A DNA stretch of 64,000 nucleotides from assembly GCA_013286935.1 (NCBI GenBank), contig JABDES010000001.1, forward strand, positions 2,499 through 66,498. Direction: 5' to 3'. The notes beneath the pieces were generated by a model. The model saw only the letters and a list, made by a program, of their open reading frames with translations, was not told the DNA's origin and ran no database searches. The translations under genes and the position numbers were made by a program. This document shows, piece after piece, positions 17,408-56,267 of this stretch. This stretch comes from Candidatus Babelota bacterium (GTDB taxonomy: Bacteria > Babelota > Babeliae > Babelales > Vermiphilaceae). Each line of letters opens with the position of its first letter. Position 1 is the first letter of the stretch.

Positions 17408-17553
17408 GATAGCTCTAAAACAAAATTATTGAGCTATGGTTGACTTGTGCTATCGAGCGTGTTATTACGAAAGCTATGCTGATGTTCGTTACGTTACCGT
17501 TCGGTAATTATTTGGTGATGTAACAAAATCAGTAAATAAAGGAGAAGCTTTTG

Positions 17554-19431
17554 ATGAGGCGATTCAATTGTACAGTGTTTTTACTATTTGTTATGTTGTT
17601 TTCCGTTTTTCATCACGGCCTAATCTGTATGGATCTGTTGGTTGGGCATCAATGCACAAAGAGCGAAGATGCGGTCGCAGCAGCATCATCAGATGAAGAT
17701 CAATATGCTTTGGTTTATAATTTATTATTGTCCGTTGAAGGCCTGATAGATATTTATGAACGTGCATGCCATAAGGTCCAGGAGACGGTTACCCAAACTC
17801 GTGGTTGCTGTGATCAAGTAGATTTGTTTGGTTGCCATACAGAGATGTTGAGTATTCTTCTTATTTTGCAAAATCGTATAGATTTGGTTTTGGCTGAAAT
17901 TGCAGGTCTTGGTCAGAACATAAATATAGCAGTTGTACAAACGGTACAGCAATTATTTGTCCCCCTCTGTTCAAAGCTACAAGCAATAGAAACGAGCATT
18001 CAGAATCTAGACATAGATTTAACTTCACAAGTCAGTCAATTAGAACAAGAAATAGCTTTGCAAGGTGAAGAGCTACTGTCTGCCTTATCAGGCGTTGAAA
18101 CATTTATTGCTCTTGGCGATGATGCATTGTCTTCTCAGCTATCTTCCGTTCTTACCAGCCTTACACTGCAAAATAACTCTTTGATATTAGCTATATCAGC
18201 GTTGTCTGATCAATTAACTACACAAAATAATTTGCTATGTTCTAAGATAGCGACTTCTGAGAAAAATATTTCTAATCAACTAACTACTGGGTTTGCCACG
18301 CAACAGATATCGACAACATCGCAGTTAGACTCTATTAGTGGACAGATAAGCACTTCTAAATCGCAACTATCAAAACAAATTACCGCGCAAGGAGCATCGC
18401 TTAATACGGCAATTGTTAATGGTATTAATGATCTTTGCGCAAAGATCATTTGCGGCAACGAAGCATTAAGTGCTCAAATCAAAAAAAGTACTGGTCTTAT
18501 TCGTACAGATATAACCCTTCTTTCTGGTGCACTTGGTTCACAAATTTCCACAGTGGATAAAGATCTTGCATTGCAGACAGATAGGGTTTGTGCAAAGATT
18601 GCAAATTCTGCGGCAGCATCGGCTATCCAGTCTGAACGATTATCTGAAAATATTTTTGACGCGAAGGTTGATTTGAGTAATCAAATGACGGTTCAGGTTG
18701 CTGGAGTTGATAATAGTGTAAATGCACAAGGAAATGCTATTTCAGCAAAATTATGTGCATTGCAATCTGGGTTACGTGGTCAGCTTGCAGTTCAAGTTGC
18801 CGAGTTTAGTTCAGATTTTAACGTACAAACTACGCAATTGTGTTCAAAGTTGTCTACAATTTATACTAATTTGACCAATCAAATAGATACTGATTTTTCT
18901 AATTTGAGTTGTGATCTGGTTGAACAGATGGCCGTTTTATGTGCGAAATTAGTTGGAATTGATACGGATATAACAACCCAGTCAAGCAGGATTAATGCTC
19001 GATTGGCGAAGGTAGAATCTGATTTGTCAAGCCAAGTATGTGTCAAAGTTTCCAATATTGAGACAAATCAGGTTATAGGTAAGAATCAGTTGAGCGCTCA
19101 GATATCTAATTGTTGTTCTTTACTTAGCAATCAGCTAACTTCACAGCTTTCCTCTGTTGAAACGGACCTTACGTTACAAAATAATTCTCTTAGTTCACAA
19201 ATAGCTGCGGTGCAAACGGCTCTAGGCAACCAATTAACTGTTCAAATAGGAAGCGTTAACGGAGAAATTGTAAGCTTTGAAGGATCTGTAAACTCACAAT
19301 TATCTGCAATACAAACCGATCTGACGAATTTGATTACCGCCCAAATATCTTCCTTGGGCGCGAGTTTAACTATGCAAATTAATAATGTGCTGACAGCAGT
19401 GGCTGCGGTCTCTTGTCCTTCATGTACGTGA
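17554..19431 (+). CDS. Exported hendecad-repeat Cys-ladder protein, subfamily A, member 1
   Basis: ATG at 17554 after AAAGGAGAAG. Signal-like FNCTVFLLFVMLFSVFHHGLIC. N-terminal CC box RGCCDQVDLFGC. Dozens of consecutive 11-residue units. Cys codons at 18841, 18940 and 19039 are exactly 33 codons apart in LCSK/LCAK/VCVK contexts. Ends ...AVSCPSCT. Confidence 0.85.
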   Translation: MRRFNCTVFLLFVMLFSVFHHGLICMDLLVGHQCTKSEDAVAAASSDEDQYALVYNLLLSVEGLIDIYERACHKVQETVTQTRGCCDQVDLFGCHTEMLSILLILQNRIDLVLAEIAGLGQNINIAVVQTVQQLFVPLCSKLQAIETSIQNLDIDLTSQVSQLEQEIALQGEELLSALSGVETFIALGDDALSSQLSSVLTSLTLQNNSLILAISALSDQLTTQNNLLCSKIATSEKNISNQLTTGFATQQISTTSQLDSISGQISTSKSQLSKQITAQGASLNTAIVNGINDLCAKIICGNEALSAQIKKSTGLIRTDITLLSGALGSQISTVDKDLALQTDRVCAKIANSAAASAIQSERLSENIFDAKVDLSNQMTVQVAGVDNSVNAQGNAISAKLCALQSGLRGQLAVQVAEFSSDFNVQTTQLCSKLSTIYTNLTNQIDTDFSNLSCDLVEQMAVLCAKLVGIDTDITTQSSRINARLAKVESDLSSQVCVKVSNIETNQVIGKNQLSAQISNCCSLLSNQLTSQLSSVETDLTLQNNSLSSQIAAVQTALGNQLTVQIGSVNGEIVSFEGSVNSQLSAIQTDLTNLITAQISSLGASLTMQINNVLTAVAAVSCPSCT

Positions 19432-19493
19432 GAGGTTAGTTTGAGAGTAATAATCTAATAAATTCTTCAAAAAAAGAGTTAGCGGGAGAGAGT

Positions 19494-20555
19494 ATGAATG
19501 GTAAAATAGGCTTGTTATGTTCTAGCGTGATCACGATTTTTTGTACCGTTTTTGTTATGACAGTCGATGAGGTTTGCGCAAAAGCATATGATTGGACAGA
19601 GCAAAATGTTGAACGTATCCAGCAAGTGATAAAGGATCAACAAAAGACAGAGCAGGAAAATAGTAAGGGAGTTGATCAGCGGGGAGGATGTGCTGCTGGC
19701 GTGTGTCCTTCAACGGAAGGTTTATTGTTGCAGGAGATTATAACCTGCCTGAATATTATAAAGGCAAGGATAAATACTGTTATAAATGACATCACACAAG
19801 TTTCTCTACAAGATGTTGTTATTATAAGCAAAATTGAAGCGTTAAGCTCTCAGGTAGCACTATGTTGTTCGGAACTTGAAGCGGCCATTGAAACCTCTCT
19901 TGACTCGATTATTTCTGAATTAATAACGACTCAAGATTCAATAATTTCCGAGCTGATAACGGCTCAAGATTCAATAATTGCTGAAGTAAATACATGTTGT
20001 GCCGTAATCACCTCAGATCTGTCTGCCCTGGAAATCTCTCTGATCAGCGCCTTTGATTCTGGCCTTACTTCAGTAGAAAGTTCACTGGCATCAGACATCA
20101 ATAGCTGTTGCGCATCTATCACCTCAGATCTGTCTGCGCTGGAAACTTCTCTGATTGGTGCTTTTGATTCTGGTCTTGCTTCAGTCGAAAGTTCATTAGC
20201 CTCAGATATTAACAGTTGCTGTGCATCTATTACTTCAGATTTATCTGCGGTAGAAACTTCTCTGATCAGCGCTTTTGACTCTGGTCTTACTTCAGTAGAA
20301 AGTTCACTAGCGGCAGACATTAATAGTTGTTGTTCAACCATTACTTCAGATTTGTCCGCCTTGGAAAGTTCAATTATAAGTACTTTTATTAGTCAACTTG
20401 CTTTAGTAGAGTCTTCAATTATAAGTACCTTTTCTAGTGAGATTGCCTCTTTGGAAAGTGCAATAGATGCAAACTCATTTACATCTTGTTGTTCTGTGTT
20501 GAGTTCTCAAATTAATGCAATTCAAGAGATCTTGCTTGGTCAGCTATGCCCTTAG
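19494..20555 (+). CDS. Exported hendecad-repeat Cys-ladder protein, subfamily A, member 2 (short, internally tandem-repeated)
   Basis: Signal-like LLCSSVITIFCTVFVMTV. Cys box GGCAAGVCPS. Three 11-aa repeats (DSIISELITTQ), then four 37-aa repeats each with an INSCCASITSDL box. Ends LLGQLCP. Confidence 0.85.
   Translation: MNGKIGLLCSSVITIFCTVFVMTVDEVCAKAYDWTEQNVERIQQVIKDQQKTEQENSKGVDQRGGCAAGVCPSTEGLLLQEIITCLNIIKARINTVINDITQVSLQDVVIISKIEALSSQVALCCSELEAAIETSLDSIISELITTQDSIISELITAQDSIIAEVNTCCAVITSDLSALEISLISAFDSGLTSVESSLASDINSCCASITSDLSALETSLIGAFDSGLASVESSLASDINSCCASITSDLSAVETSLISAFDSGLTSVESSLAADINSCCSTITSDLSALESSIISTFISQLALVESSIISTFSSEIASLESAIDANSFTSCCSVLSSQINAIQEILLGQLCP
19902..20426 (+). repeat. 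In-frame tandem repeats inside member A2: 33 bp x ~3 (19902-19982), then 111 bp x 4 (19983-20426)
   Basis: Unit starts read directly: GACTCGATTATTTCT at 19902, GATTCAATAATTTCC at 19935, GATTCAATAATTGCT at 19968. The 111-bp units start at 19983, 20094, 20205 and 20316 (GACATCAATAGCTGTTGC / GATATTAACAGTTGCTGT / GACATTAATAGTTGTTGT). Confidence 0.9.
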
Positions 20556-20635
20556 TAAGATAATTCAAATGAAAAGATGGGCGCCATGATAATGAAGCGA
20601 TGTAGAGTAATTTTTATATATTATAAGGAGAAAAA

Positions 20636-21094
20636 ATGAAAAAAAAGCTGGTACATTATGTAACGCTATCTGTCGCTCTCATAAGCCTTATGTCGATACA
20701 GATGACAATGGCTACAGATACCGAACATAAGGCTGCAACTATTCAAAAGCAGCTGGAAGAGTCACTCGAGTCAGATGTTATAGTTTTGTCTCGAGAACAG
20801 GCAATGAAAATAATGCATGTGTTAGAATGCGTTGTAGAGACCTATCAGAAGGACGGCTCTCTGGATTTGCCAGGACAGGGAGCGCGTGCTGCCTTAAGTT
20901 GTTGTGCTCAGTTAGATGAGGTTGTCCAGTGCTTGTTGCTCATTAAATCCTCACTGGCTACTATTCAGGTAATAGATACTTCCATACTGGGTACAGTGGA
21001 AAGCTGCTGTAGCGTTATTGAAGGCCAAATAGCAACTAATCAATCTACACTTGTTTCACTTTTGCAGACAATTATTAGTTGTACATGTACCTAA
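20636..21094 (+). CDS. Exported mini-member of subfamily A (member 3, 152 aa)
   Basis: Signal peptide MKKKLVHYVTLSVALISLMSIQMTMA. N-terminal CC box LSCCAQLDEVVQCLLLIKSSL and C-terminal CC box VESCCSVIEGQI. Ends IISCTCT. Confidence 0.8.
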   Translation: MKKKLVHYVTLSVALISLMSIQMTMATDTEHKAATIQKQLEESLESDVIVLSREQAMKIMHVLECVVETYQKDGSLDLPGQGARAALSCCAQLDEVVQCLLLIKSSLATIQVIDTSILGTVESCCSVIEGQIATNQSTLVSLLQTIISCTCT

Positions 21095-21179
21095 GATTTC
21101 ATGTAAAGATAGAACACAGCAAAATTTTGAATATAAGTTTTGCTGTGTTCCCGTTGTAGTACCGTTGGTATAACAGAGG

Positions 21180-23180
21180 GTGAGAGTGAAATCAATGTTG
21201 TTTTTTTTCTGTGCTGTGTTATTGGTCTTTGTTAATTGGGCAAGCTACATAATTTGTAATAATGTGATCGAAAATAGTTGTGTATGTCAGGAGCGCAACG
21301 AAACGATTTTACTGATAGAAAGCATACAAAAAAGCATCGATGAGCTGTGCTCTCAACTTGCCTGCCTTGCACATCCCAGTTCCTGTGCGACTTGTGACGA
21401 TTTTACAAATTTTTTTATTGCTTTAGACGATCAAATTAGTGCGCTTGTCAAACTTTTGTTAGCCCAAAGCATTACGATTTGTAGTAAATTTACGACGCTT
21501 GAGCGTAGTTTATCCGAACAGGAAGAAGCGATTTGTAGACAGATCATCTCCATACAAAACCAACTTGGAATGAGCATAGATGATATTCTCACACTATTCA
21601 CCAAAACAGCAAGTCATAATAACATAAAAAGACAACACATTTTAGAAGCAATTGGAAAGCTAGGCGCTACCCTTCAGATTGAATTACAATGTGCGTTTAG
21701 TGCCCTCAGATCTGCTGTGCTTGTGCAAACTAATGGTATAAGCATATTGACTAACGATACAAAAACAGCTGTGGTAAAATCCATAGGTGAAATATCTACT
21801 CAGATAGTAAAGTTTGAACATGAAGTTATTGCTCTTATTAACATACTTTTTTCTTATATAGAGTCGGCTACTGCGAGCAATCTTTGCACGTGGTGTGCTG
21901 TATTAAAAGATGCTGGAACAACAATAACAAAAACTATTTTAGAGCAGAACGATACATTTGAATTGACAATGTCTGTCTTGCACGATGAGCTTGTTTCAAA
22001 ATTAAGTGGATTGGAAACGTTTCTGACGCAAAAAGATTCGCACTTATTGGCTCAGATTAATAAAGTAAAAGAGAGTGCGAAAACTGAGCAGTTACGGTTT
22101 GGCTCTGTGTTTGTTATGGCTAACAGTGAAATTAACAGCAGCATTCTTTCTACGTTTGGTAAAATGGATACAGATGTCGTATGTACGGTTGATAGCATTA
22201 GATTATGCTTAATTAGGTTGTGCACCGCTCTGCATACGGATTTGAATAATAATACATTGGCTTTTGCTACCAAATTAGTGGCCTGGTTGGATCAATTTTG
22301 TCTAAAGCTTTCCTGTCTGCAGTCAGCAATATGTGATGTGCTTGCTGCTCAATTTACGGCAACAGAATTGTTTGCTAGTAATAAATTGGATCGCATAAAA
22401 ATTAGAGTGGAGGAGATGCAAGATGGGGTGCAGGTGCAACAGGCTGAAGCACTTGGGAGCATTGATTGTTTAGGTGCTCTCTTAGAACAGGAAGTATGTA
22501 TAAAAATTTCAGGACTTGAAACATCGCAAGCCAAAGATACTGATCAGTTTTTACAGCAATTTGGTTATTTTCAGGCCAATTTGGTGAGTCAGCTGTGTTC
22601 AAAATTGGCCGCTATGGAGCTTGTATTGCTTGGAAAGGCTTCAGATATTATGAACAAAATTGTAAGGACGCAGGTTCAGTTAGATGAAAAAATTGATGAT
22701 ATTGCCGGACAGATAATCTCTGATACTATTGCTCGTGACGATCTTCTTTGTGCTCAGGTGCAAGCGGCTGCATTTGGATTAGAAAGTCAGTTGGTGGTAG
22801 CAATTTCAAATTTGGGCGTAGAATTAAAGAGCCAAGAACACAATCTGTGCGTTAAGGTTACACAAGAGTCTGCATCTCTCCAGCAGGAGACCAATGATAA
22901 TGTGCAAAACAGCGAAGCCGCTTTATTGTCATACAATCAAATGTTATCCACTCAGATAATGGATATGGGATCTACGGTTGACGAAGCATATGAAAACTTT
23001 CTTTCAAATATGGACGTTGTTCAAAATGAGATTATAGGAGATATAGTTGCCACAGGTGCTATTTTAGATAGTCGCCTACAGGATATTACTGCTGCGCTAG
23101 GAGCGGCTTATCTAGAATATTTGGGTGTGCTGACCACTCTGATACTTAATGTAGCAACAAATGGTAGTGCAATATTTTAA
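21180..23180 (+). CDS. Exported hendecad-repeat Cys-ladder protein, subfamily A, member 4
   Basis: Signal-like MLFFFCAVLLVFVNWASYI (GTG 21180 or ATG 21195 start). Cys box SSCATCDDF. Motifs ICSKFTTLERSL, QLCSKLAAMEL and LLCAQV...NLCVKV (the last pair 33 aa apart). Confidence 0.8.
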   Translation: MRVKSMLFFFCAVLLVFVNWASYIICNNVIENSCVCQERNETILLIESIQKSIDELCSQLACLAHPSSCATCDDFTNFFIALDDQISALVKLLLAQSITICSKFTTLERSLSEQEEAICRQIISIQNQLGMSIDDILTLFTKTASHNNIKRQHILEAIGKLGATLQIELQCAFSALRSAVLVQTNGISILTNDTKTAVVKSIGEISTQIVKFEHEVIALINILFSYIESATASNLCTWCAVLKDAGTTITKTILEQNDTFELTMSVLHDELVSKLSGLETFLTQKDSHLLAQINKVKESAKTEQLRFGSVFVMANSEINSSILSTFGKMDTDVVCTVDSIRLCLIRLCTALHTDLNNNTLAFATKLVAWLDQFCLKLSCLQSAICDVLAAQFTATELFASNKLDRIKIRVEEMQDGVQVQQAEALGSIDCLGALLEQEVCIKISGLETSQAKDTDQFLQQFGYFQANLVSQLCSKLAAMELVLLGKASDIMNKIVRTQVQLDEKIDDIAGQIISDTIARDDLLCAQVQAAAFGLESQLVVAISNLGVELKSQEHNLCVKVTQESASLQQETNDNVQNSEAALLSYNQMLSTQIMDMGSTVDEAYENFLSNMDVVQNEIIGDIVATGAILDSRLQDITAALGAAYLEYLGVLTTLILNVATNGSAIF

Positions 23181-23198
23181 ATTAGTGGAAAGGTGGAG

Positions 23199-25301
23199 AT
23201 GTCTGCTAGATTTTGCTCATTTTATGGTCTTGCCAACTGCTTGAGTATAGTAGCATTATGTATATGTATTTTGCGCGGCCAAGAGTCTGGCAAGATTTCT
23301 TCTTTTGCCAAGAACGATTTAGAACGGTTGTTAAGTGACATAGAGAACTTTGTTAAAGATAATCCGTACCTTTGTCAGTACAGAGGTGCGTTATGCAAGC
23401 AACCGAATGCTTGTTGCATAGACATTCAATTACTTAATGAGATTGATTCTTCTTTGTTTGTTATTAAGGCCAGGTTAATTGAATGCCTTTCTCAGATTAA
23501 TTTTTGTTGTGGCGGCGCTGAACAGATTATTGACGCAGAGATTGATCCTTTCTTTGCTAGAATCAACAATCTTATATGCGTATTGAATGATCTGATTATT
23601 GTGCAGCAGAGTAACACTAATTCTTTTGTAGACCAAATTAATACTGAGTTGGATGCAAATAATAATACGACCAAACAAAAACTTTATAGCCTGAATGCTG
23701 CGGTCTTGGCAAATTATGCGGCTTTGTCTGCGCAGATTACCAATGAAAAACAGTTGATTATAGAACAACAGAGGTTGCAAAAAAATGAGTTAGCCCTCGT
23801 GCAATCGAAATTAGATGTCCAAATAGTTACGGGTTGTCTTGAACTCAAAGAACAACTGTTCACTGCTATTGGCCAGATCAGTCAACAATCGATTGCATTA
23901 AACAATACTATTGTACGGGCAGATGAACAGTTAAATAGTGCATTATATGGCGCTCGGCATGCAATTACGAATGCCTTTATTAGTGGCAGTGCTCAACTGG
24001 CTGATTTGATCGAACAGCAATCTTGCGCATTTGATACCAAGATAAAAAAATTATTTGCAAAGCTTAGTGGTCAGTTGACTGGGCAAGTTTCACGTAGCGC
24101 CGTCAATAGCTCTATTCAAACAGATATGATCTGCCAAGGTATTTCAAATATAGGACGCTCACAACAGCGTCAGTCTAATGTTCTTATTCAAAAACTAGTT
24201 GATATTATAGCGCTTCTTGGAAAATTAACCGATGTTACGGTAGAACGAATTCTTGTTGCCACATCTGCTTTGACTACTCAAGTCAATGAGCAAAGTTCCC
24301 TTTTGGCCTCCACAATGTCTAATTCCATTCCCACTCTTATTACTCAATTAGTAAGTTGTCGGTCAAGTCTATACAATGCATTATGCGAGCAAGTATTGGG
24401 GCTAGAGATTCAAATGGTTGAAAGTAGTGACAAAGCCTGTGCCAAACTACAAAATTTTGAAACGGATTTTTGCCAGTTTTTTGAAATGCAAATTTCAAAG
24501 CTAAATAACAATGCTATTGTATCGATGGCAGATATCACTGGTCAACTCGCTGTTTTGGATGAATCTTTGCGCACGTATAAAACATATGTTTCCAGTCGTT
24601 TTTCTTGCGTCCAGCAGGGTGTGCAGTCGCAAATATGCCAAAAGCTTTCCAATCTTTCTACCGAAGAGCTTTTTAATAAAAATTGCATTCTTGGACAGTT
24701 AGTTAATGCAGATTTACAGATTACAGGACAGCTTTCAAATAAAATATCTACAATTTCTAAAAATTTGACCGCAGAAAATGCAGCTATCCAGGTTGGCATA
24801 AGCAATGCATTGCTGGATGTGTATAACCATTTGGGGCAAAATTTTTCTACACTCAATGGAGTGCTTGTTGCCAATAGCAATGCATTATGCGCAAAGCTGG
24901 CGGCAGCACAAACGGTTCTTGCCGGAGATCTTAATAACTCATTGGCGCAGTTATATACTGATTTGACAAATCGAAATAATATAATATCTCAAAGAATTAC
25001 GACGCTTGGTTTGGATTCTGGATTAGCAGTCAATGGTGGTCTATCTACCCTCTCTACGAGCATATTCGTCCAGAATCAAAGCCTATGTAACCAATTAGTT
25101 AATTTTTTAACAGAAGTTACGGCGGATAACAATGCTGTTATGACCAAATTATCAGGAATAGAATTGGCAATTACAACAACGTTGATCAATACAACCCAGG
25201 AGGTTGATAATGCTATTACTATGATTTATGCAGAGGTTCAGAACCTGCTATTAACGTTTGCGTATACCTATTCAGCCATACTGATTTATTTGTTGGTGTG
25301 A
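23199..25301 (+). CDS. Exported hendecad-repeat Cys-ladder protein, subfamily A, member 5
   Basis: ATG 23199 after AAAGGTGGAG. Signal-like FYGLANCLSIVALCICIL. CC box PNACCIDIQLLNEI. Clean hendecad run QLVNADLQITG/QLSNKISTISK/NLTAENAAIQV/... ALCAK to SLCNQ spacing is 66 aa. Hydrophobic C-terminus TFAYTYSAILIYLLV. Confidence 0.85.
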   Translation: MSARFCSFYGLANCLSIVALCICILRGQESGKISSFAKNDLERLLSDIENFVKDNPYLCQYRGALCKQPNACCIDIQLLNEIDSSLFVIKARLIECLSQINFCCGGAEQIIDAEIDPFFARINNLICVLNDLIIVQQSNTNSFVDQINTELDANNNTTKQKLYSLNAAVLANYAALSAQITNEKQLIIEQQRLQKNELALVQSKLDVQIVTGCLELKEQLFTAIGQISQQSIALNNTIVRADEQLNSALYGARHAITNAFISGSAQLADLIEQQSCAFDTKIKKLFAKLSGQLTGQVSRSAVNSSIQTDMICQGISNIGRSQQRQSNVLIQKLVDIIALLGKLTDVTVERILVATSALTTQVNEQSSLLASTMSNSIPTLITQLVSCRSSLYNALCEQVLGLEIQMVESSDKACAKLQNFETDFCQFFEMQISKLNNNAIVSMADITGQLAVLDESLRTYKTYVSSRFSCVQQGVQSQICQKLSNLSTEELFNKNCILGQLVNADLQITGQLSNKISTISKNLTAENAAIQVGISNALLDVYNHLGQNFSTLNGVLVANSNALCAKLAAAQTVLAGDLNNSLAQLYTDLTNRNNIISQRITTLGLDSGLAVNGGLSTLSTSIFVQNQSLCNQLVNFLTEVTADNNAVMTKLSGIELAITTTLINTTQEVDNAITMIYAEVQNLLLTFAYTYSAILIYLLV

Positions 25302-25323
25302 TGATTGACGAAAGAAGTGGACA

Positions 25324-27342
25324 ATGAACGTGAGTGGTTGGCATGCTATAGCTTTTCTAACGGTCTCTTTTATATATTGTTCAGTTTTGTCTGCTGATAC
25401 TGTTCAGACCAGAGTTGTCAATAACGGGGTACAGGGCTCAATGGAATGTATGAATACGGTAGTAGGCGTTGCATTGTACATTAAACTATTGCTTGAAGAT
25501 TTTATTGCCGTATTTGATTTATTCGAGACTACGAGTAGTCAATCCATAGGTCGCAAAGTTTTGGAGCGCTTCGCTCTTTTAAGTAGTAAGTTAAATGCCA
25601 TAGAAACTATGATCTCTAAAGAAGATGAATATTTGATTGCCCAATTCAACGCCCTTTCGATTGGCGCTGTACAGGATTACGACATGCGCACGCAACAGGT
25701 AGGCCAAGTAGGTCGCACTCTTGATGAGTCTCAGATGAGCTTTGTAGAACAACTCGCTCAATTACTGGTTGTGTCCAAAGTAATGGTTGAACAACTGTCT
25801 GTTCAGATAAACAGTTTTCAAAAAAGATTTTCTATCATATTTAACGATTGCTCTGCGGATTTATACAACACATTTGTCTACGAAAATCAACAACTTATTA
25901 CACAATACAATACCACTGCATCTCTATTGTCTGGATTTATTACAGATTTTTGTGAACATCTTTTTAATACTCAAGAAAATCTACAGGTACTTTTTAATAT
26001 TCAGGGAAATCAGATAACACGTATGCTTCATAATCAAAATGAATATGTAATAAAACTAATCAAGGAATTTGGTAGATCACTGGAGTTGCAGGCAGCTCGT
26101 CAGATTACCCTGATAGGTACCGATTTAACCGTTAATACTAATGCCATTTGCTCAAAATTATCAGGACTTGAGTTAGCATGTACACAGCAGGGCGATACAG
26201 TTTTATTAAATGAAAAGTTTATAGAGCAGGCAGAAAGTTTTTATGAGCAATCTGTAGAGCAAGCTCTTGTTCGTTATAATACACAAATTAATAGAATTAT
26301 GGTTCGTCAATTTTCACGCCTCCTGTTAGGTTTTACAGAACTTGCATCTCGATTCAACGTTGATTTATCGTTATTTGAAAACGACTTACGTGCTCGTATA
26401 GTGCAACAGCTTAGTATGAGCATGCAAACTTTAACTGGTGTTTCATCGACATTACAATCAAAGATATGTTTTATTTCTGCAGATTTGGGATGCAAGGTTC
26501 GAAAAAGTTTGTCTGATACCCGTCTTATCTTTGGAAAAACTGCATCCAAGACACTATCGCAGATAGCATTGCTCGAAGAGCATGTGCAGATATATACGGG
26601 TGATATAAAAAGACAGTTTGCCTGTGTAGATTCTCAATTACGTTCAACGGCATGCAAAAAGGTTTCTGATCTGGAATTACAGCAGGTCATGTATGCTCAA
26701 GCGATTACCGATCAGCTGGCAGCTATGTACTCAGGTATTAATCAACAGTCTAGTCTTCAATTATCCTCTTTGGAGATTGAGCTTAGCAGGCAAAATGACC
26801 AGATTTGTACACAACTTGTTAACTTTGATGCAAATCTTATAGCACTGCTTGCGCGACAATTTTCCAACGAGCAGTCATCTATTGCATCTAACAAAGCGCT
26901 TTTGTGCTCTAAAATAAATAGTATTCAGGTGAATACGCAGGCTGATATTAAAACAAAATTATCATCATTTGCTACCAATCTTGCAAAACAAGATTATTCA
27001 TTATGCGCACAGTTGGAATCTGCAGAATGCGATCTTATTGCTACTTCAACTACAGAGTTTACGAGTATCTTTGCTCAAATAGCACTAGCCAATGCTGCTT
27101 ATTGTTCAAAAATCGCTTCAATTGAAAATAATCTTGCCAGTCAAACTGACAATTTGTGTACTCAAATAATGATGTTTGATGCATCAATCATGGCCTCTAT
27201 TCAATCAGAGAGTGACTTTCTTCAGTCGCGCATAGGAGAAGTTATTACTCTGATTAATATGAATAATAATTTATTAACCGTAGCAAACCAAGTGTTTGGA
27301 GCTGTTGCAGCTGGTCAAGTTGCGTTGCCTGCTCAAGCATAA
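25324..27342 (+). CDS. Exported hendecad-repeat Cys-ladder protein, subfamily A, member 6
   Basis: Signal-like WHAIAFLTVSFIYCSVLSA. LLCSK -> SLCAQ -> AYCSK are each exactly 33 aa apart. Ends AAGQVALPAQA. Confidence 0.85.
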   Translation: MNVSGWHAIAFLTVSFIYCSVLSADTVQTRVVNNGVQGSMECMNTVVGVALYIKLLLEDFIAVFDLFETTSSQSIGRKVLERFALLSSKLNAIETMISKEDEYLIAQFNALSIGAVQDYDMRTQQVGQVGRTLDESQMSFVEQLAQLLVVSKVMVEQLSVQINSFQKRFSIIFNDCSADLYNTFVYENQQLITQYNTTASLLSGFITDFCEHLFNTQENLQVLFNIQGNQITRMLHNQNEYVIKLIKEFGRSLELQAARQITLIGTDLTVNTNAICSKLSGLELACTQQGDTVLLNEKFIEQAESFYEQSVEQALVRYNTQINRIMVRQFSRLLLGFTELASRFNVDLSLFENDLRARIVQQLSMSMQTLTGVSSTLQSKICFISADLGCKVRKSLSDTRLIFGKTASKTLSQIALLEEHVQIYTGDIKRQFACVDSQLRSTACKKVSDLELQQVMYAQAITDQLAAMYSGINQQSSLQLSSLEIELSRQNDQICTQLVNFDANLIALLARQFSNEQSSIASNKALLCSKINSIQVNTQADIKTKLSSFATNLAKQDYSLCAQLESAECDLIATSTTEFTSIFAQIALANAAYCSKIASIENNLASQTDNLCTQIMMFDASIMASIQSESDFLQSRIGEVITLINMNNNLLTVANQVFGAVAAGQVALPAQA

Positions 27343-27372
27343 TGTGGCTATGATGAAAGGGGTTGTAAAAAA

Positions 27373-29625
27373 ATGAAAAAAGCGACGATGCATGGCATAT
27401 TGATGGGCATATTTCTTGCGCTTTATTCGACCTCTTTGGTGGCTTGCGAGTCACTAAGGCTTGAGCAACTTGCTGATAAGTTGGCTTGTATAAATTCAAA
27501 ATCAGTTGAACGCGGTCACTTGAAAGAATGTTGTGAAGATCCAAGGATTTTAAATGAGATTTTTACTGATCTGTTTCGTTGTATATTTATTATCAGTAAC
27601 CGTTTAAGTTACCTAACAGAGGCAATTAGCTCTTTTGACACCTCACTGACCCAAGAGATTATTAATATTATTAATGATCAATTGCATTCTCAACTTCTTG
27701 CATGTCAAATTGATACCATTGAATCTGATCTGCGCCAGCAAGAACTTCTTATTTGTGAGCTAGTGTCTGCTTTTGATAGTCTTACTAAAATGTTAAACAC
27801 ACAATTGAGCGAATCTTTGAGTAGTTTGTCTGACGATATAGTGGTAGATGAGAGTTTAAATGACAGTGCCGTGTTAGTTTTTGCAACTCAATCTGCACAT
27901 CTTAATGATCGGGCTTTTTTTAGTGTTGAAAAGGCACAGGCAGAAACCGTTTCATTTATTGATCAATCAGAATCGTCGTTGTTAAATGTTTTTGCTACGG
28001 GTTTTAGTCAGACAGAACGGGTTATAACAGCAATTAACCAAACAGTTACAGATCAACTATCAGATGCAAAACTTTTGGTAATAAAAGCATTTGAGACGGA
28101 CAGTGCATTATTGCAGGAAATTTCACTACAAGCTGCGTTAGAGCTTAAGAATGCGCATACGGTTTCAGAAATTATATCCTCTGCTGCTATTCAGGTTGAT
28201 GCTGCACTCATAAAAGATTTTAATACTCTTTTGTCAATTGCGCAGGCCAATCAGGAACGATTATATGCTTCGATTGATAGGATAAAAAATAGTTGCTGTT
28301 GTCAAGATAGTAAGTTGAGTGATGCTTTAACTAAGAATCAATCAACTTTGGTCCAATCAACAGAGCGTCTTTTACAAGAATTGTCAAAAGACAAAAAAAC
28401 GATTATGAGTTTTTTAGGGAAGTCGGGAGATAATTTTATCGATAAGGTTAATCAATTTGGTTGCTGTGCATGTGAGCGCACAAATAAAATAGGCAAATCG
28501 CTTATTGCCGATATTGACGAACAGTATAAGCTACTGCAAGTACAGGCCTCAGAGCAGCTGTTTTGTTTAGTAGATCAGCTTTCTTGTTTACAAAAAGTAG
28601 CAATAAAAGAAACAGCAGAACAAATAGAGCTTTTACGTCCACAAATTGCTGGTACATGTACCACCATTGGTGGAAGATTGTCTCATTTGGATAAGGAAAT
28701 TTGTGCAGCAGATGCACAGGTTTTACAACAACTAAAGTGCATAGAAATGCAATTAATAGGGCAGTTATGTCTTAAATTGTCATCTCTTGAAAGCACGCGT
28801 ATTGTACAGAAAAATAGTTTGCTGATAGAGTCTTCCGACTTTCAAACTCATATTATAAACGAATTATGTTCAAAAATTTCAAGTATAGAAACTGATTTAG
28901 TAGTGCAGAATGGCATGCTCCGCTCCAGAGCCTCTTGCCTGGATACATCTATCTCGCGTGCATTGCTAGAAGGTTTTGGACAGGTTCGCTCAAGTCTGAA
29001 TGCGTTTAATGCAGCTATTTTTTCTAAAATTCTGACCTTTCAAAGTGGAGTGAGCACGACAATTGACAGTTCTGTTTCAGCGACTTTATCAGAGCTTTCA
29101 ACTCTTAATAGCTTGCTAAAGCAAAAAGTTGACCAGCTTGATTCTGGCGCGCAGTCGTCATTAAATCAGGGCTTTATTGCTTTATCGGGGCAGTTGGCTG
29201 CACGTAATGCGCTACTGTGTCAAAAAAATGCAAGTTTAGAGGCTATGGCTATTTCAGAAGTTGATTTCTTGTGTGAAAAATTCAGTAATGCTTCGTCGGA
29301 TATAAGTTTTTCTCTATTGCAGATGAGTACCACCTTATTAGAGTCAATTGCTAGTTTGGATACTGGCATAACGTTAAGTTTGCTGCTTATCAGCCAATTA
29401 AATGGCTTGGTAGATACTATGCAGCCAGGATTTTTAACCTTTAAGTATGACCCACTTGTAGGAGCAGGTTTGGTAGCGCTACTTTCAGCAGGATTTAATG
29501 CTATGGATGCTGAAGTTGCAGCAAATCCTTCGTTAGCATCGCTTCAAGCTGCGCTTTTAAATGCGGATTTTCTTGCAGCTGTAGCTATAATCACTGTTTT
29601 CTCTTTCCTTCCTCCACTCATTTAA
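27373..29625 (+). CDS. Exported hendecad-repeat Cys-ladder protein, subfamily A, member 7
   Basis: Signal peptide MKKATMHGILMGIFLALYSTSLVAC. CC box LKECCEDPRILNEI. QLCLKLSSLES -> ELCSKISSIET is 33 aa apart. Hydrophobic C-terminus AAVAIITVFSFLPPLI. Confidence 0.85.
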   Translation: MKKATMHGILMGIFLALYSTSLVACESLRLEQLADKLACINSKSVERGHLKECCEDPRILNEIFTDLFRCIFIISNRLSYLTEAISSFDTSLTQEIINIINDQLHSQLLACQIDTIESDLRQQELLICELVSAFDSLTKMLNTQLSESLSSLSDDIVVDESLNDSAVLVFATQSAHLNDRAFFSVEKAQAETVSFIDQSESSLLNVFATGFSQTERVITAINQTVTDQLSDAKLLVIKAFETDSALLQEISLQAALELKNAHTVSEIISSAAIQVDAALIKDFNTLLSIAQANQERLYASIDRIKNSCCCQDSKLSDALTKNQSTLVQSTERLLQELSKDKKTIMSFLGKSGDNFIDKVNQFGCCACERTNKIGKSLIADIDEQYKLLQVQASEQLFCLVDQLSCLQKVAIKETAEQIELLRPQIAGTCTTIGGRLSHLDKEICAADAQVLQQLKCIEMQLIGQLCLKLSSLESTRIVQKNSLLIESSDFQTHIINELCSKISSIETDLVVQNGMLRSRASCLDTSISRALLEGFGQVRSSLNAFNAAIFSKILTFQSGVSTTIDSSVSATLSELSTLNSLLKQKVDQLDSGAQSSLNQGFIALSGQLAARNALLCQKNASLEAMAISEVDFLCEKFSNASSDISFSLLQMSTTLLESIASLDTGITLSLLLISQLNGLVDTMQPGFLTFKYDPLVGAGLVALLSAGFNAMDAEVAANPSLASLQAALLNADFLAAVAIITVFSFLPPLI

Positions 29626-29640
29626 TGATATGGTGCTCTT

Positions 29641-31578
29641 ATGAACATTGCTTTTATGCGCTATATACGTTTGTGTAAGATGCGTTTTGTATGCGTCTTC
29701 TTGGTTACTTGTATGCAGGCCAATGCATCCGAATATGTAGATCAATCTGAACAGATGGCATATGAGATTATTTCCCTGCTGGTTTCTATGGAAAATAATC
29801 TTGAGTATTTGTGTCAACGTATGCGTTCCTCTATCGTTTCAAAAACCGATAGGCAGGCAAATTTTGCTGTGCCAGACAACATTATCAGCTCAAATGTGTG
29901 CGATAGACTTTTTGACTTGATTGATACAATGGAAGGTTTTATTAATGACGATCAATATCAATCTACTTTGTCGTTGCATAAGGATGCTGAAAGCATTCTC
30001 AAGGTAAAAACCTATTTTGAAAATCTTTTTTTACATATGCAATCCAATTATAAAACCTATCAGATGGCTATTAATTCGAATGTAGAGCGATTTAAGGCAG
30101 CAGTTGATCATGATAGATTTTTGATGCAAGAGGCGCAGGAAAAAGTTGCCTTGTACCTAAATTCTGCGTGTTCGAGTTTACTTGATAGGGTGCGTTGTAA
30201 TGTTGTAGAAAAAATAGGTGAACTTAGTGGTGGTTTACATATAGAGGAATGTGAACTAAAAATACGTGATGAATATCAAAAAAATATCTGTATTGGCGAT
30301 AGTATGTTCGGTCTCTTTAGAGATGAAATTGATCAGATATTGAATATGTTCGAAGAAAAATTCCACAACATGATGCTTCCTGATGATACATCAATCTTTG
30401 ATGCCTTAGACAAAAAAGGTGCTACGTTGCTAGAAGAGTTGCTGTCGGACTTTGAAATAAAAAATGCGCAGTTAAGAGTCATTTTCTGCGCGCAACGTTC
30501 TACATTTTATTCTACGTTTAATGATATGTGTGAATCGATGGCCGCAATCATTAATGGTGTAGTGCAAAATCGGATTTGCTTTGATACATATTCTGTGAAC
30601 AAATCAACCAGCTGTGAAAGATGTAAAGAGCAGTGTGATGTGTTAACAGAGCAATGTGCTTGTCTTAAGCAATCAATTTTTTCTGCGCTAGAGAACTGTG
30701 TTGTGAGACAGTGCAGTTTTTATGAAGAACAAATTGTTTTTGTGCAGCAAGAAATGAAATCTGCGCTCCAAAAAAATGCCGTAGCAAAAAATACATTGTG
30801 TAATAATTTAAAAAGGCATACAGATCTTGTGTGCCAATTTTGTTCGTCAATCTGCGGTAACGTTGCTCAGTATTTTTCAACCGCCGCCGCAGAGAGCATT
30901 TACAGCAAAAACGAACTTGTGCGAAACATTGCCTTATTTCAGACTGATATAGTGGATCAAATGAAAATCGTCTCTGAAAGATTTAATTTCGATATGCATG
31001 AGTATTTGGCTGACTGTCACGACATAATTTGTGTTATTGATACCATTGTGGACAATGCGTTATCAAAGATGAGCGGTGCATTTGATAGAGCACTGTTTTC
31101 TGCTGAAAGCGATTGCTCTTTAGTCAGTGCGCTTGCAATCGACATTATGGATGAGATTACTGTGCAACAGTCTCAAACACAATGTGTAGTGGCTGCCAGA
31201 ATAAAATCTTTCACTGATCTGTTGCATGAACAGGTTACCAACGTGGCAAATGTGCAGGCTTTGGCGGCGCAACAATGTTGTAATTTATCAATGATATTTA
31301 GCGACCTATGCCAAAAGATACTCAATGTAGAATGTGCATTGGCTCAGGAAGTTGCAGTGGTCGGTAATCAGTATAATGCCCTGACTGCTACTACTGTAAA
31401 TGAAATTAAGCTGATGGAAGACAACATAAATAGCTCGATTGTCCAAGCGCTTGCAGCCTTGGGCGGTATCCTAGGTGGTCTTATTGGTCAAGCAAAGACA
31501 TTGTTGATCTCAGAAGGAGCGAATGCAGACCTGCTAGCCAAGTCTGGCAAAGGAGGCAAAAAAAGCGGTGGAGGATAA
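29641..31578 (+). CDS. Exported Cys-rich helical protein, subfamily B, member 1
   Basis: Signal-like MRFVCVFLVTCMQANA. More charged and very Cys-rich. Shared C-terminal module LCQKILNVECALAQE...SSIVQALAALGGILGGLIG, then a basic Gly-rich tail KSGKGGKKSGGG. Confidence 0.8.
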   Translation: MNIAFMRYIRLCKMRFVCVFLVTCMQANASEYVDQSEQMAYEIISLLVSMENNLEYLCQRMRSSIVSKTDRQANFAVPDNIISSNVCDRLFDLIDTMEGFINDDQYQSTLSLHKDAESILKVKTYFENLFLHMQSNYKTYQMAINSNVERFKAAVDHDRFLMQEAQEKVALYLNSACSSLLDRVRCNVVEKIGELSGGLHIEECELKIRDEYQKNICIGDSMFGLFRDEIDQILNMFEEKFHNMMLPDDTSIFDALDKKGATLLEELLSDFEIKNAQLRVIFCAQRSTFYSTFNDMCESMAAIINGVVQNRICFDTYSVNKSTSCERCKEQCDVLTEQCACLKQSIFSALENCVVRQCSFYEEQIVFVQQEMKSALQKNAVAKNTLCNNLKRHTDLVCQFCSSICGNVAQYFSTAAAESIYSKNELVRNIALFQTDIVDQMKIVSERFNFDMHEYLADCHDIICVIDTIVDNALSKMSGAFDRALFSAESDCSLVSALAIDIMDEITVQQSQTQCVVAARIKSFTDLLHEQVTNVANVQALAAQQCCNLSMIFSDLCQKILNVECALAQEVAVVGNQYNALTATTVNEIKLMEDNINSSIVQALAALGGILGGLIGQAKTLLISEGANADLLAKSGKGGKKSGGG

Positions 31579-31583
31579 TTTAG

Positions 31584-33503
31584 ATGTTTAGCCTGCTATC
31601 CAATACAATGCGTAAGTTGTTAGTTGCGTGTTGCATTATTGCGACAATCCAGGATGTTTTTGGTGGTGATGAGCAGATAGCCAATGAGATTTTTGCCAAT
31701 TCTGTTCAAATTGCTCAGTTAGCTACATTATTAAAACATAGCATTGAAAATATTGAGTCCTCTGATGTAATCAACACTGAGAATCATGTTACACAACGGC
31801 TTGCAACGTTGACGTTGCAAGCCCTCGACCAGATTGTCTTGTCTGAAAGTAAAAAGGTTCAGAAATATATTGTTTTGTATGATAAGTGTGCCAAAGGGCA
31901 GGAGCTAATGGCTCGAGAATGCAGTGATGTATACAATGCTATCTTTAACCAAGTATGCAACATAAAAAAAAGGTGTAATGAATGCATTACCCAGCAAAAT
32001 TCTATGATCTTACAATTAGAAGAATGGACAGAACATTGCTCTAAAGAGTTGGTTTCTTTTAATGCAAAGCGCTATGAGTCGTATGTTTCCGATTGCAATG
32101 TCCACTTAGGACAATTGTCTGAAGAGTTGCAGGCTATTTTGACCTCCAAAGTATCTGCTGGTCAAGATAACGGTTATGTGTCGGATGATTTTATTGGTGA
32201 TTTACGTAATGTATCCACCATGTATGACGATGTGCGGTGTTCTGTTCGCGCTATATCGCAAGACGCTATAGGTAAAATTCGCCAATGGGATAAACAGGCA
32301 GAAGATGCCTTTTTGCAGTTTTCTCAGAATAACAAGAATGCTTTAAAAGATAGATTATCAATGGATATTAATACTCATTTGAGCAAACTTTATAACGATT
32401 ATTATGAAGAATTATGCGCCAAAGAGGCTATATTTTATCAGCATAGCTCTGAAAAAATTATTACATTATTAAGTGAACTTGATATATGGATGAGTAATGA
32501 TAATTTTGATTTTATAAAAGATATTTCTTTATATTCTTATGATGATTCGATACGAATGATACCCGATACAAATGTGCTTGTAGCTGAACGCCATCGTATG
32601 CAGGATCTTATCGCTAATTTTACTAAAGAATCCTATTTTTCTAACAAAGAATTATGTGCATTCAATAGTGATGAATTTACATCACCTTATCTTGTTCGTA
32701 TAAAAAAAGCCTATGATGAGATATGTCCAATTGTAGGTCAGATAAAAGAATGCTGTAATCAATCTACTGCGCTTTTATATTTATCTATTGAGAATATGAA
32801 TTCCATTATTGAGCTAGCTTGTTCTCAGGCAAAAAATGTTCAATCGAAAGCAATCGCTGATATTGCTACAACAGCGCAAGCTGATATAAAACGGGCGTTG
32901 TCGTGTGCGTCATATGAATTGGGATCTGAATATTGTCATGTCACAGAAAAACTTAATTGTTCAGCGGCTTGTTTGTTGTCCGAGCTACAAAATGCATTTT
33001 TACGCTCAAATTTACAAAATGATACATACAATAGCCAGAACGTAGAACAGATTAAGCGAGCAAAAGATGCATTTGTTGATAGCGCTTCAATAATTGTGGG
33101 TCGTGATTTGCCATGTGTATCATCAACAATTCTTTCATTTTGTAATCAAATTACCTCTGACAATCAAGAATCAGCGGTTATTTTTAGTCAAATGCTCGAG
33201 ACTCAGGAATCTCTCTTGTGCAAAGCTCAAGCAGTATTGTGCGAAAAAATCTTTGATATTCAAAATAATATTATTAATGATATAAATATGCTGAACAATA
33301 GATTAAACTCATCAACTGAGCGTATTATTAATCAGATAAAACGTTCAGAATTTGCTATCAATCAAGATATTGCCGCAATGATGAATTCTATACGAGGTAT
33401 TATCGGGGCATTTGGTAATTATTATTTTTATATTAATAGACAAACAGAGCGCAATATAGAGTTAGCTATAATACTTTTGGTCATAAAGATTTTAACGCTA
33501 TAA
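31584..33503 (+). CDS. Exported Cys-rich helical protein, subfamily B, member 2
   Basis: Starts 5 nt after the B1 stop. Signal-like LLVACCIIATIQDVFG. C-terminal module VLCEKIFDIQNNIINDI...IAAMMNSIRGIIGAFG and hydrophobic end IELAIILLVIKILTL. Confidence 0.8.
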   Translation: MFSLLSNTMRKLLVACCIIATIQDVFGGDEQIANEIFANSVQIAQLATLLKHSIENIESSDVINTENHVTQRLATLTLQALDQIVLSESKKVQKYIVLYDKCAKGQELMARECSDVYNAIFNQVCNIKKRCNECITQQNSMILQLEEWTEHCSKELVSFNAKRYESYVSDCNVHLGQLSEELQAILTSKVSAGQDNGYVSDDFIGDLRNVSTMYDDVRCSVRAISQDAIGKIRQWDKQAEDAFLQFSQNNKNALKDRLSMDINTHLSKLYNDYYEELCAKEAIFYQHSSEKIITLLSELDIWMSNDNFDFIKDISLYSYDDSIRMIPDTNVLVAERHRMQDLIANFTKESYFSNKELCAFNSDEFTSPYLVRIKKAYDEICPIVGQIKECCNQSTALLYLSIENMNSIIELACSQAKNVQSKAIADIATTAQADIKRALSCASYELGSEYCHVTEKLNCSAACLLSELQNAFLRSNLQNDTYNSQNVEQIKRAKDAFVDSASIIVGRDLPCVSSTILSFCNQITSDNQESAVIFSQMLETQESLLCKAQAVLCEKIFDIQNNIINDINMLNNRLNSSTERIINQIKRSEFAINQDIAAMMNSIRGIIGAFGNYYFYINRQTERNIELAIILLVIKILTL

Positions 33504-33517
33504 GCAAAAGGCGGATT

Positions 33518-35467: not shown

Positions 35468-35494
35468 CATAGTTGTGCGTTTTATTGCCAAGGG

Positions 35495-41927: not shown

Positions 41928-41987
41928 ATACTCTCTTTTTTAATTAAAGTTGCCAAGCACGTAAAATAAGTTAGAACTCCTCATTAT

Positions 41988-45020: not shown

Positions 45021-45044
45021 AGTTACTGCTCCTAATATTGTAAT

Positions 45045-51887: not shown

Positions 51888-52150
51888 AGTCCATCTCCTG
51901 TGTGTGCTTTGCACTAGATGCGCGTGCCATATTGAGCATTTCGTAGTATTATAGAGTATAGCAATTATAATTATATTATGCAAATTGGCAAATTGGAGGG
52001 CTCTGGACTACTCAGGCCAGGCTTGGTTGCATGTGTGGCAGGTTGATATGAATGGGAAATGGGCCCTGTGGCTAGATTGATGGGGCTTGTTGGCTGGATT
52101 ATTGAAGGTTGTCAGAACGGTACAGATAGATTGAGGGGCTGTACAAAACG

Positions 52151-53917: not shown

Positions 53918-54090
53918 ATCTCTATAGTGCATTGCAGATTGGGCGTTTCGTGTCACTATTCTTTCTGTTTGAAAAAATCTGTTTTTTTGATAGGCTCTTA
54001 ACTCATAGAAGCTTTTACTTTACAAAAACGTACTGTTAGTAATTGTTTATAGTCATAATTCGTAGAAAAAACTAATTTGAGTTGTATTAT

Positions 54091-56192: not shown

Positions 56193-56236
56193 AATAAAAG
56201 CGTTATTTTCGTTACGGCTAAGATAACGCTTTTATT
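56193..56236 (+). other. Second hairpin immediately upstream of trmD
   Basis: 14-bp arms AATAAAAGCGTTAT / ATAACGCTTTTATT with a ~16-nt loop, followed by T-rich sequence. Possible terminator or attenuator. Confidence 0.35.
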
Positions 56237-56267
56237 GATTTACCACACTTCCAAGGCCAAGATTCTC

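Follow-up and report, generated by a model that had tools for sequence, protein, structure and literature searches.

The proteins described here come closest in structure to the hendecad coiled coils, a class that includes the stalk of Staphylothermus marinus tetrabrachion and other right-handed or straight coiled coils, and have in common with them an 11-residue periodicity and very long, uninterrupted, apparently exported rods. The proteins are encoded by 11 tandem plus-strand open reading frames (ORFs; m1 to m11, m1 being the first) that span 17551-37426 of a 64,000-nucleotide stretch (hereafter, the window) of contig JABDES010000001.1 (positions 2,499 to 66,498 of the forward strand; GenBank assembly GCA_013286935.1, Candidatus Babelota bacterium). 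That they form an undescribed family of alpha-helical rod proteins with Sec signal peptide-like N termini is well supported, as is the origin of the array in a Dependentiae (TM6)-type, intracellular-type bacterium. The GyrB encoded in the window shares 60-71% identity with Dependentiae and Babeliales MAGs and no more than about 59% with anything else, and the sequence of the window recurs on a Logan contig from SRR8431268. No sequence homology to tetrabrachion was detectable, and of the two only the array family has a 33-residue super-repeat with a C-x-K motif, 18-residue stutters and 11 tandem paralogues.

The exchangeable apolipoproteins (ApoA-I, ApoA-IV and ApoE) also have an 11/22-residue helical periodicity. 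The array family differs from them in lacking proline-punctuated 22-mers and in having a narrow hydrophobic stripe, an uncharged polar face and periodic cysteines, and the likeness is most likely one of convergent periodicity. As predicted for the array proteins, keratin and other intermediate filaments, fibrinogen, laminin and COMP are long coiled coils that bear Cys clusters at the ends of their rods and contain stutters or hendecad insertions, and lateral inter-rod disulfides occur in some eukaryotic fibrous coiled coils. These eukaryotic proteins, however, are heptad-based, have no regular 33-residue Cys register and show no homology to the array. Streptococcal M proteins, the stalks of trimeric autotransporters and Lpp are exported, elongated coiled coils attached to the envelope, as the array proteins are predicted to be; the array proteins have a different repeat period and are Cys-rich, and no LPXTG motif, beta-barrel anchor or YadA-type head was seen in their sequences or Pfam matches. 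In the chlamydiae, which are intracellular bacteria with an extracellular stage, the Cys-rich envelope proteins OmcA, OmcB and MOMP form intermolecular disulfides. The analogy with this outer membrane complex is functional only: the proteins are Cys-rich in both cases, and those of the array are predicted, by a rule-based reading, to be exported as the chlamydial ones are, whereas the chlamydial ones are beta-rich or beta-barrels rather than helical rods, with no sequence similarity and no Pfam match. Exported fibrous coiled coils as such are known, and it is the periodic C-x-K rung and the conserved 11-gene Dependentiae array that are distinctive.

An initial annotation of this DNA, made from the letters without database searches, knew of no described bacterial family with this architecture, and the searches agree with it. 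No Pfam model reached its threshold. PF01442 (Apolipoprotein A1/A4/E) scored 34.8 bits with m1, against a cut-off of 90, and 9.9 bits with m6, and PF04513 (Baculo_PEP_C) scored 22.1-27.9 bits against a cut-off of 38. The proline-punctuated 22-mers of PF01442 are absent from the array proteins, whose rods of more than 500 residues are nearly free of proline (0-6 Pro each) and have a dominant period of 33 rather than 22. NCBIfam gave no family match for nine of the ten members tested and one spurious GrpE match (15.8 bits, cut-off 200). A Foldseek search of the PDB with an AlphaFold2 (AF2) model returned nothing meaningful (best E-value 1.2). In the PDB, the family profile matched ApoA-IV chains over profile positions 201-373 (E 1.5e-15) and, more weakly, ApoA-I and ApoE. 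The Apolipoprotein, Baculo_PEP_C and ApoA-IV matches probably reflect a shared 11-mer periodicity and composition. No such family is described in the literature searched, including the Babela massiliensis genome paper (PMC4378268).

The 33-residue cysteine register

The first gene of the array, m1 (17551..19431, + strand, 626 aa), encodes a signal-peptide-like N terminus (hydrophobic stretch at residues 9-20, by a rule-based reading) followed by a Cys cluster, a long helical rod and, at the C terminus, the motif SCPSCT. Residues 429-626 (18835..19428, + strand) are six consecutive 33-residue repeats of three hendecads each, recovered by a repeat hidden Markov model with i-E-values of 1e-10 to 7e-15. 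At column 3 of the repeat, repeats 1-3 have Cys-x-K and repeats 4-6 have Thr-x-Q. The Cys trio to which the initial annotation drew attention (18841..19041, + strand) falls in this column: in-frame TGT codons at 18841, 18940 and 19039, 99 nt apart, encode C431, C464 and C497, each 33 residues from the next, and the translated contexts are QLCSKLSTI, VLCAKLVGI and QVCVKVSNI, as had been read.

The intervals counted in the paralogues were correct as well. The Cys residues that keep the register (hereafter, rungs) are C440, C473, C524 and C557 in m4 (21180..23180, + strand, 666 aa; rungs at 22497-22850), with 33 residues within each of the two pairs and 51 between them, and C482, C566 and C632 in m5 (23193..25301, + strand, 702 aa; rungs at 24636-25088), where C566-C632 is 66 residues and Ser takes the place of Cys at one rung. 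In m6 (25324..27342, + strand, 672 aa) they are C444, C495, C528, C561, C594 and C612 (26653-27159), spaced 51-33-33-33-18, so that C528-C561-C594 gives the reported 33 + 33. In m7 (27373..29625, + strand, 750 aa) they are C466, C499, C616 and C634 (28768-29274), C466-C499 being 33 residues. The 51-residue interval had been regarded as an exception to the rule; homologue spacings and alignment columns instead mark it as a conserved family spacing of 33 + 18. The register does not extend to all 11 proteins, being present only in m1 and m4-m7 and failing in m2, m3 and m8-m11.

Within the window, the distance of 33 residues between Cys was observed 16 times in the 11 ORFs against 8.1 expected (p = 0.008), and 66 residues 17 times against 7.7 (p = 0.002). 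Enrichment had been anticipated at multiples of 11 and especially at 33; the part concerning 33 stood, but multiples of 11 in general were not enriched across the 11 ORFs (p = 0.10), nor was 99 (p = 0.4), and the maximum over all Cys-Cys distances was not significant (p = 0.22). In m1 and m4-m7 the counts were 10 against 3.15 expected for 33 (p = 0.001), 9 against 3.07 for 51 (p = 0.004) and 11 against 3.0 for 66 (p = 0.00015). The m1 trio by itself had p = 0.018, and an equally spaced Cys triple at some distance arises in 75% of shuffles. The spacing signal within the window alone is modest.

Outside the window the register signal is overwhelming. A full HMMER profile search of 1.84 billion representative proteins gave about 25 full-length relatives, all of them metagenome proteins without names. 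In 22 outside homologues, no Cys-Cys distance was as enriched as 33 (55 observed, 11.7 expected, z 13); after it ranked 117, 84, 51 (z 10), 66, 135, 10 and 18, whereas distances of 11, 22, 44, 55, 77 and 88 were not enriched; none of 3000 shuffles reached the observed maximum. In every data set Cys was the most lag-33-periodic amino acid, at 3.5-4.9 times expectation, with Lys next. Cys showed no periodicity at lags 11 or 22, recurring once per three hendecads. Because paralogues and orthologues share homologous Cys positions, the counted intervals are not independent events, which accounts for part of the enrichment.

The Cys register is set in a helix of the same period. BLOSUM autocorrelation peaked at lag 33 in m1 (z 11), m4, m6 and m7, and was also raised at lags 11, 18, 22, 44, 51 and 66. 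The hydrophobic period in m1 and m4-m7 is 3.65 residues, near the hendecad value of 11/3 (3.67, spaced 4-3-4), and with 3.65 residues per turn the helices should therefore be nearly straight. In a logo of the context around Cys, hydrophobic peaks at -12, -8, -5, -1, +3, +6, +10, +14 and +17 trace three hendecads with positions a, e and h, and the rung consensus adds K/Q(+2) and E(+7). The AF2 monomer of m1, modelled from the 27-sequence family alignment (A2), has helices at residues 96-324 and 334-625, with a rod predicted local distance difference test (pLDDT) score of about 70-76. Together with the repeat rows of m1, the autocorrelation, logo and model bear out the earlier description of long alpha-helices on a three-hendecad repeat. 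A recent DNA-level tandem duplication was rejected as the origin of the 99-nt period, as Tandem Repeats Finder (TRF) detects only a 111-nt repeat in m2. Since the 99-nt period is undetectable in the DNA, the motif is kept at the protein level.

In alignment A2 the conserved Cys columns are spaced 33-51-33-33-18 and hold Cys in 20, 18, 17, 14, 20 and 10 of the 27 sequences, respectively. C497 of m1 occupies the first of them, which is joint best (20/27), and C431 and C464 are extra upstream rungs that are present in some relatives. Between orthologues no residue is better conserved than Cys (70%, compared with about 38% overall identity in those pairs), and strong purifying selection on Cys is supported by these comparisons. 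The m4 orthologues P0005 and P0007 keep all four of its rung Cys at an overall identity of 33-39%.

The array itself is found elsewhere. A JGI (Joint Genome Institute) metagenome contig of a related organism (L082, GC 40%) carries orthologues of m1-m7 in the same order, 67% identical for m1 and 39-44% identical for m2-m7, with an open reading frame at the m8 position that runs to the contig end. On a Logan contig from SRR21707676 (L083, GC 34%; 1-21977), which belongs to a third, more distant organism, there is a tandem array of at least eight genes, six of which match the window family by BLASTP and two of which have no BLASTP match; its Cys spacings of 10, 33, 41 and 66 recur. The L083 array adjoins genes for UvrD and a class Ib aminoacyl-tRNA synthetase, and the array in the window is flanked by sodA and ctpA. 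As the flanking genes differ, the array is conserved and its chromosomal neighbourhood is not. The gene order kept in L082 and the comparable array in L083 mark an old, conserved multi-gene system rather than a recent expansion.

Other searches added little. A scan of genome contigs for exact m1 peptide patterns found no relatives, which says little about the spread of the family in GTDB genomes, and the family alignment is too diverged for deriving search patterns. A word-indexed homology search had no match for m1, its index being swamped by low-complexity words, and with P0011 as the query it returned P0011 alone. The match to a word-indexed profile query was rejected as an unrelated Rhizobiales apolipoprotein/phasin-like protein. 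Long but weaker profile matches (P0019, P0024 and others) were set aside as periodicity analogues with generic Apolipoprotein, Baculo_PEP_C or phage tail-fibre regions.

Rung geometry and the chemistry of the cysteines

The phase of each residue was measured against the local hydrophobic moment with a period of 3.65. Rod Cys (n = 286) had a mean phase of -101 degrees from the hydrophobic seam (R 0.48), which is hendecad position b, with only 12 of them (4%) less than 30 degrees away from the seam itself; the opposite flank is favoured by Lys and Gln. The phase is as tight as that of the seam residues Leu, Ile and Phe, so the Cys do occupy one fixed helical position as first proposed. In idealised parallel, in-register bundles of two, three or four strands, an identical residue at about 100 degrees is separated from its copy by a Cb-Cb distance of 12-13 Å, and in an antiparallel pair with the same flank geometry by 10.9 Å. 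From the rung Cys to the Lys(+2) of the neighbouring chain, the idealised parallel bundle gives 6.6-9.5 Å. A disulfide ladder locking one in-register bundle, as the initial annotation envisaged, is unlikely because 12-13 Å far exceeds the reach of a disulfide, and any disulfides would therefore lie between bundles or involve other Cys. Its suggestion of metal sites fared no better, the context logo having no pattern of His, Asp or second-Cys partners around the Cys.

No consistent pairing of Cys was found across the rung columns, with one correlated pair (columns 678/729, phi 0.59), and an even-number bias, which would have pointed to intramolecular disulfides, was ruled out since the Cys count is odd in 13 of 27 proteins. 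These two results disfavour fixed intrachain pairs. A homotypic, inter-molecular use of the rung Cys, or no disulfide at all, would fit the pattern. An intrachain antiparallel hairpin in m1 (C230 + C431 and C140 + C521 both sum to 661) was rejected as over-fitting, given the AF2 predicted template modelling score (pTM) of 0.21, the lack of consistent rung co-variation and the 10.9 Å antiparallel distance.

A second Cys often stands exactly 10 residues before the rung Cys (C-x9-C) across the family, for example in m5 (C472/C482), m4 (C430/C440), m6 (C434/C444), m7 (C456/C466) and m1 (C454/C464). This C(-10) accompanies 17% of Cys rungs but 1% of rungs that lack Cys (odds ratio 14.6). With about 100 degrees between them, the paired Cys cannot bond within one helix.

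We favour, at a probability of roughly 0.4, a reading in which exported rods are cross-linked laterally through their rung Cys into an envelope or surface lattice. Each 33-residue unit, or each 51 residues where an 18-residue stutter intervenes, supplies one rung with Cys at b, Lys at +2, Glu at +7 and often a Cys at -10. The chains would form parallel in-register coiled coils, either homo-oligomers or mixtures of paralogues, the latter being possible because the rung spacing is common to paralogues. Unable to reach its own copy in the bundle, the rung Cys would sit on the flank beside the Lys of a neighbouring chain, and adjacent rods, either level with each other or shifted by an integral number of repeats (about 4.9 nm each), could be joined by inter-rod rung disulfides. 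Further links may come from the Cys clusters near the N termini and, in m1-m3, from C-x-x-C motifs at the C terminus, and most members have a hydrophobic C-terminal tail that may serve as a membrane anchor. Rods joined in this way would build a fibrous layer, held together by covalent bonds, within the envelope or on the cell surface, comparable in function to the outer-membrane complex that disulfides stabilise in the infectious forms of chlamydiae. Disulfide chemistry is plausible because all 11 ORFs have a signal-peptide-like N-terminal segment, each with a hydrophobic region (Kyte-Doolittle of at least 1.95 over 12 residues, a rule-based call) that mostly follows Lys or Arg. The disulfide cross-links, the oligomeric state and the lattice are predicted features.

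Several points weigh against this lateral cross-linking. The overall confidence of the AF2 monomer is low (pLDDT 62.5, pTM 0.21), the geometry argument rests on idealised bundles with straight helices, and the cellular location was read by rule from the signal-peptide-like segments and hydrophobic tails. With a signal at its N-terminal end and an anchor at its C-terminal end, a rod some 500 residues long is hard to fit into a periplasm. The rung Cys are individually dispensable, the commonest substitute being Ser, with Thr, Ala and Gly also found, and such substitution would suit equally well a packing role that needs a small residue. In addition, a simple disulfide model does not predict the strong coupling between Cys and Lys, which may mean another chemistry.

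That coupling was measured at structurally equivalent sites, taken as those with a hydrophobic residue at each of -1, +3 and +6. Lys stands at +2 in 55% of sites with Cys at position 0 and in 14% of those with Ser, Thr, Ala or Gly (odds ratio 7.6-7.9, p ~1e-18, the p-values being inflated by shared ancestry). As residues i and i+2 point about 200 degrees apart, the coupling suggests a contact across a helix-helix interface, and, lying on opposite flanks of the helix, Cys and Lys would face each other across the interface of a parallel bundle. K(+2) and E(+7) are five residues apart, which is the i to i'+5 offset of the classical ion pair between the chains of parallel coiled coils. The rung may then be a direct inter-helix Cys...Lys contact, either a thiolate-ammonium pair or a covalent Lys-O-Cys (nitrogen-oxygen-sulfur, NOS) bridge, with no disulfide ladder; such a contact would set the register or the choice of paralogue partner, or act as a redox switch, with Ser/Thr...Gln as its neutral alternative. 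The coupling of Lys(+2) exceeds that of every motif position except C(-10), and the distribution in m1, where K(+2) goes with each of the three Cys rungs and Q with each of the three Thr rungs, agrees with it. So do the m1 orthologue in L082, in which T530 is replaced by Cys together with Q by K, adding a fourth rung Cys, the rank of Cys and Lys as the two most lag-33-periodic residues, and the 6.6-9.5 Å separation across the parallel-bundle interface. Kinship nevertheless inflates the p-values, and within aligned rung columns the coupling, though present, is weaker (odds ratio 2.2, p = 0.003). It is also partly one of intact versus degenerate repeats, since E(+7) has an odds ratio of 3.5 and the remaining positions reach about 3 at most (2-3.5 overall), and the contact would not account for the many other conserved Cys, those in the N-terminal clusters, in the CC doublets and in the C-x-x-C motifs at the C terminus. 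We consider this contact, the main rival of lateral cross-linking, somewhat unlikely as the explanation of the rung. A fuller version of it is very doubtful: the C-x-K rungs as a periodic inter-chain Cys-Lys ladder (NOS or thiolate-ammonium), with steps about 4.9 nm apart in a straight coiled coil and the 11 paralogues as distinct blocks of one redox-switchable lattice. If true, the rod lattice would be rigid outside the host and loosened in the reducing interior of the host.

The ladder of the initial annotation, in which rung Cys of identical chains are apposed within one parallel coiled coil through disulfides, metal or lipid contacts, draws on the fixed Cys phase along the rod, on the independent gain and loss of rungs and the lack of a parity constraint, both of which suit homotypic pairing, and on proteins that appear exported and are Cys-rich; the position of Cys at b, some 100 degrees from the seam, the 12-13 Å distances and the missing metal partners make it quite unlikely. 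Equally improbable is a coat of apolipoprotein- or perilipin-like amphipathic 11-mer helices on a bacterial or host membrane or on lipid, in which Cys would be a small interfacial or host-acylated residue. The rods have the 11/3 periodicity that helices lying flat on membranes typically show; the ApoA-IV match in the PDB and the weak Apolipoprotein and Baculo_PEP_C matches in Pfam point the same way. The Pfam score, however, is far below its cut-off, the PDB match lies mid-rod, outside the rung region, and probably stems from shared periodicity and composition, the narrow hydrophobic stripe takes up about 3 of 11 positions, and Ser, Thr, Gln and Asn abound on a polar face that lacks the Lys-flanked, acidic-centred pattern of class A helices; nor is there any proline punctuation. 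Finally, the periodic Cys might be a neutral relic of the ancient duplication of a Cys-containing 33-residue unit, as Cys does lie within the duplicated motif and single rungs tolerate Ser, Thr, Ala and Gly. Yet the repeats are undetectable in the DNA while Cys is the most periodic and most conserved residue, the m4 rungs are invariant at 33-39% identity, and the same spacings persist in three organisms with GC of 34% to 40%, which leaves a relic highly improbable.

Remaining members of the array and neighbouring genes

Short Cys motifs and clusters occur at both ends of the proteins. After the signal-like segment there is an N-terminal cluster of CC or C-x-x-C followed by an L/I-rich helix, which in m1 covers residues 86-95 (approximately 17800-17850). 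The cluster is common to m1-m5, m7 and many homologues, and columns 102 and 103 of alignment A2, which belong to it, have Cys in 8 and 11 of 27 sequences, respectively. It may be an oligomerisation knot at the N-terminal end of the rod. A hydrophobic tail of about 20 residues ends most family members, m4-m11 among them, and is replaced by short C-terminal Cys motifs in m1 (19414-19428), m2 (20544-20552) and m3 (21077-21091); the L082 orthologues of these three retain terminal Cys motifs (TCPTCT, TCSP and NCG). In m1 there is also a CC doublet at residues 521-522 (19111-19116; QISNCCSLLSN), which is missing at that site in the 67%-identical L082 ORF 31-1314 and reappears there exactly 33 residues downstream (KISACCTSLSG).

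The second gene, m2 (19494..20555, + strand, 353 aa), has a signal-peptide-like N terminus and 37-residue tandem repeats with CC doublets, ends with LCP, and is linked to m1 and m5 by BLASTP. TRF reports a 111-nt unit in 3.3 copies with 81% identity at 20007-20371, and each of the corresponding 37-residue units (INSCCASITSDLSALE) carries a CC doublet. The L082 orthologue is far longer (583 aa, with many more CC units), so the repeat copy number varies among relatives. In each doublet one Cys appears, judging by the pattern of the sequence, to take a core position, and such short proteins may therefore suit an in-register disulfide ladder better than the rungs first reported. A 125-aa antisense ORF within the repeat region (19964-20341, - strand) is itself repetitive and almost certainly a by-product of the repeat rather than a gene.

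m3 (20636..21094, + strand, 152 aa) is a short, Cys-rich protein with a signal-peptide-like N terminus and the ending SCTCT; its orthologue L82_3162 is 44% identical to it and matches m2 as well. Both m5 and m7 have a hydrophobic C-terminal tail. The signal-like segment of m7 includes a lipobox-like LVAC, and an identical m7 protein is encoded on the Logan contig SRR8431268_660. The last four genes, m8-m11 (29641..37426, + strand; 645, 639, 649 and 643 aa), form a distant subfamily that is related to the rest, by BLASTP among the ORFs, only through the C-terminal 200 or so residues, including the last LCxKI rung. An hhalign comparison of alignments A2 and A4 supports this link (probability 90%, E 1.5e-6). 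m8-m11 have no 33-residue register, and their lag-33 enrichment of Cys is 1.65-fold.

Elsewhere in the window, a 446-aa ORF at 56235-57575 (+ strand) joins a TrmD tRNA (m1G) methyltransferase (PF01746) to an S-adenosylmethionine-dependent RNA methyltransferase (PF09936). A duplication of ffh was considered and rejected, as the two 446-aa ORFs are unrelated: the one at 54082-55422 is Ffh and the one at 56235 the TrmD fusion. On the minus strand, the stretches 39828-46865 and 48144-51983 hold a run of four tetratricopeptide repeat (TPR) proteins (699, 463, 546 and 606 aa) and, past an HflX-like GTPase, a run of three ORFs, each of 424-432 aa and without a Pfam match. The TPR set and the 424-432-aa ORFs may be further lineage-specific gene families.

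Significance for the Dependentiae

The practical value of the rod family is modest for now. As a natural, long, non-heptad coiled coil with a strict 33-residue super-repeat and covarying Cys and Lys on opposite flanks of the helix, it offers a testable hypothesis on covalent chemistry between helices or between rods. The Dependentiae (TM6) are widespread, almost wholly uncultured bacteria that are thought to be parasites of protists, and to our knowledge almost nothing is known about their envelope or their survival outside the host. Cys-rich rods with signal-peptide-like N termini, encoded in a conserved array, are therefore good candidates for a structural component of the envelope, the cell surface or the host interface in this lineage.

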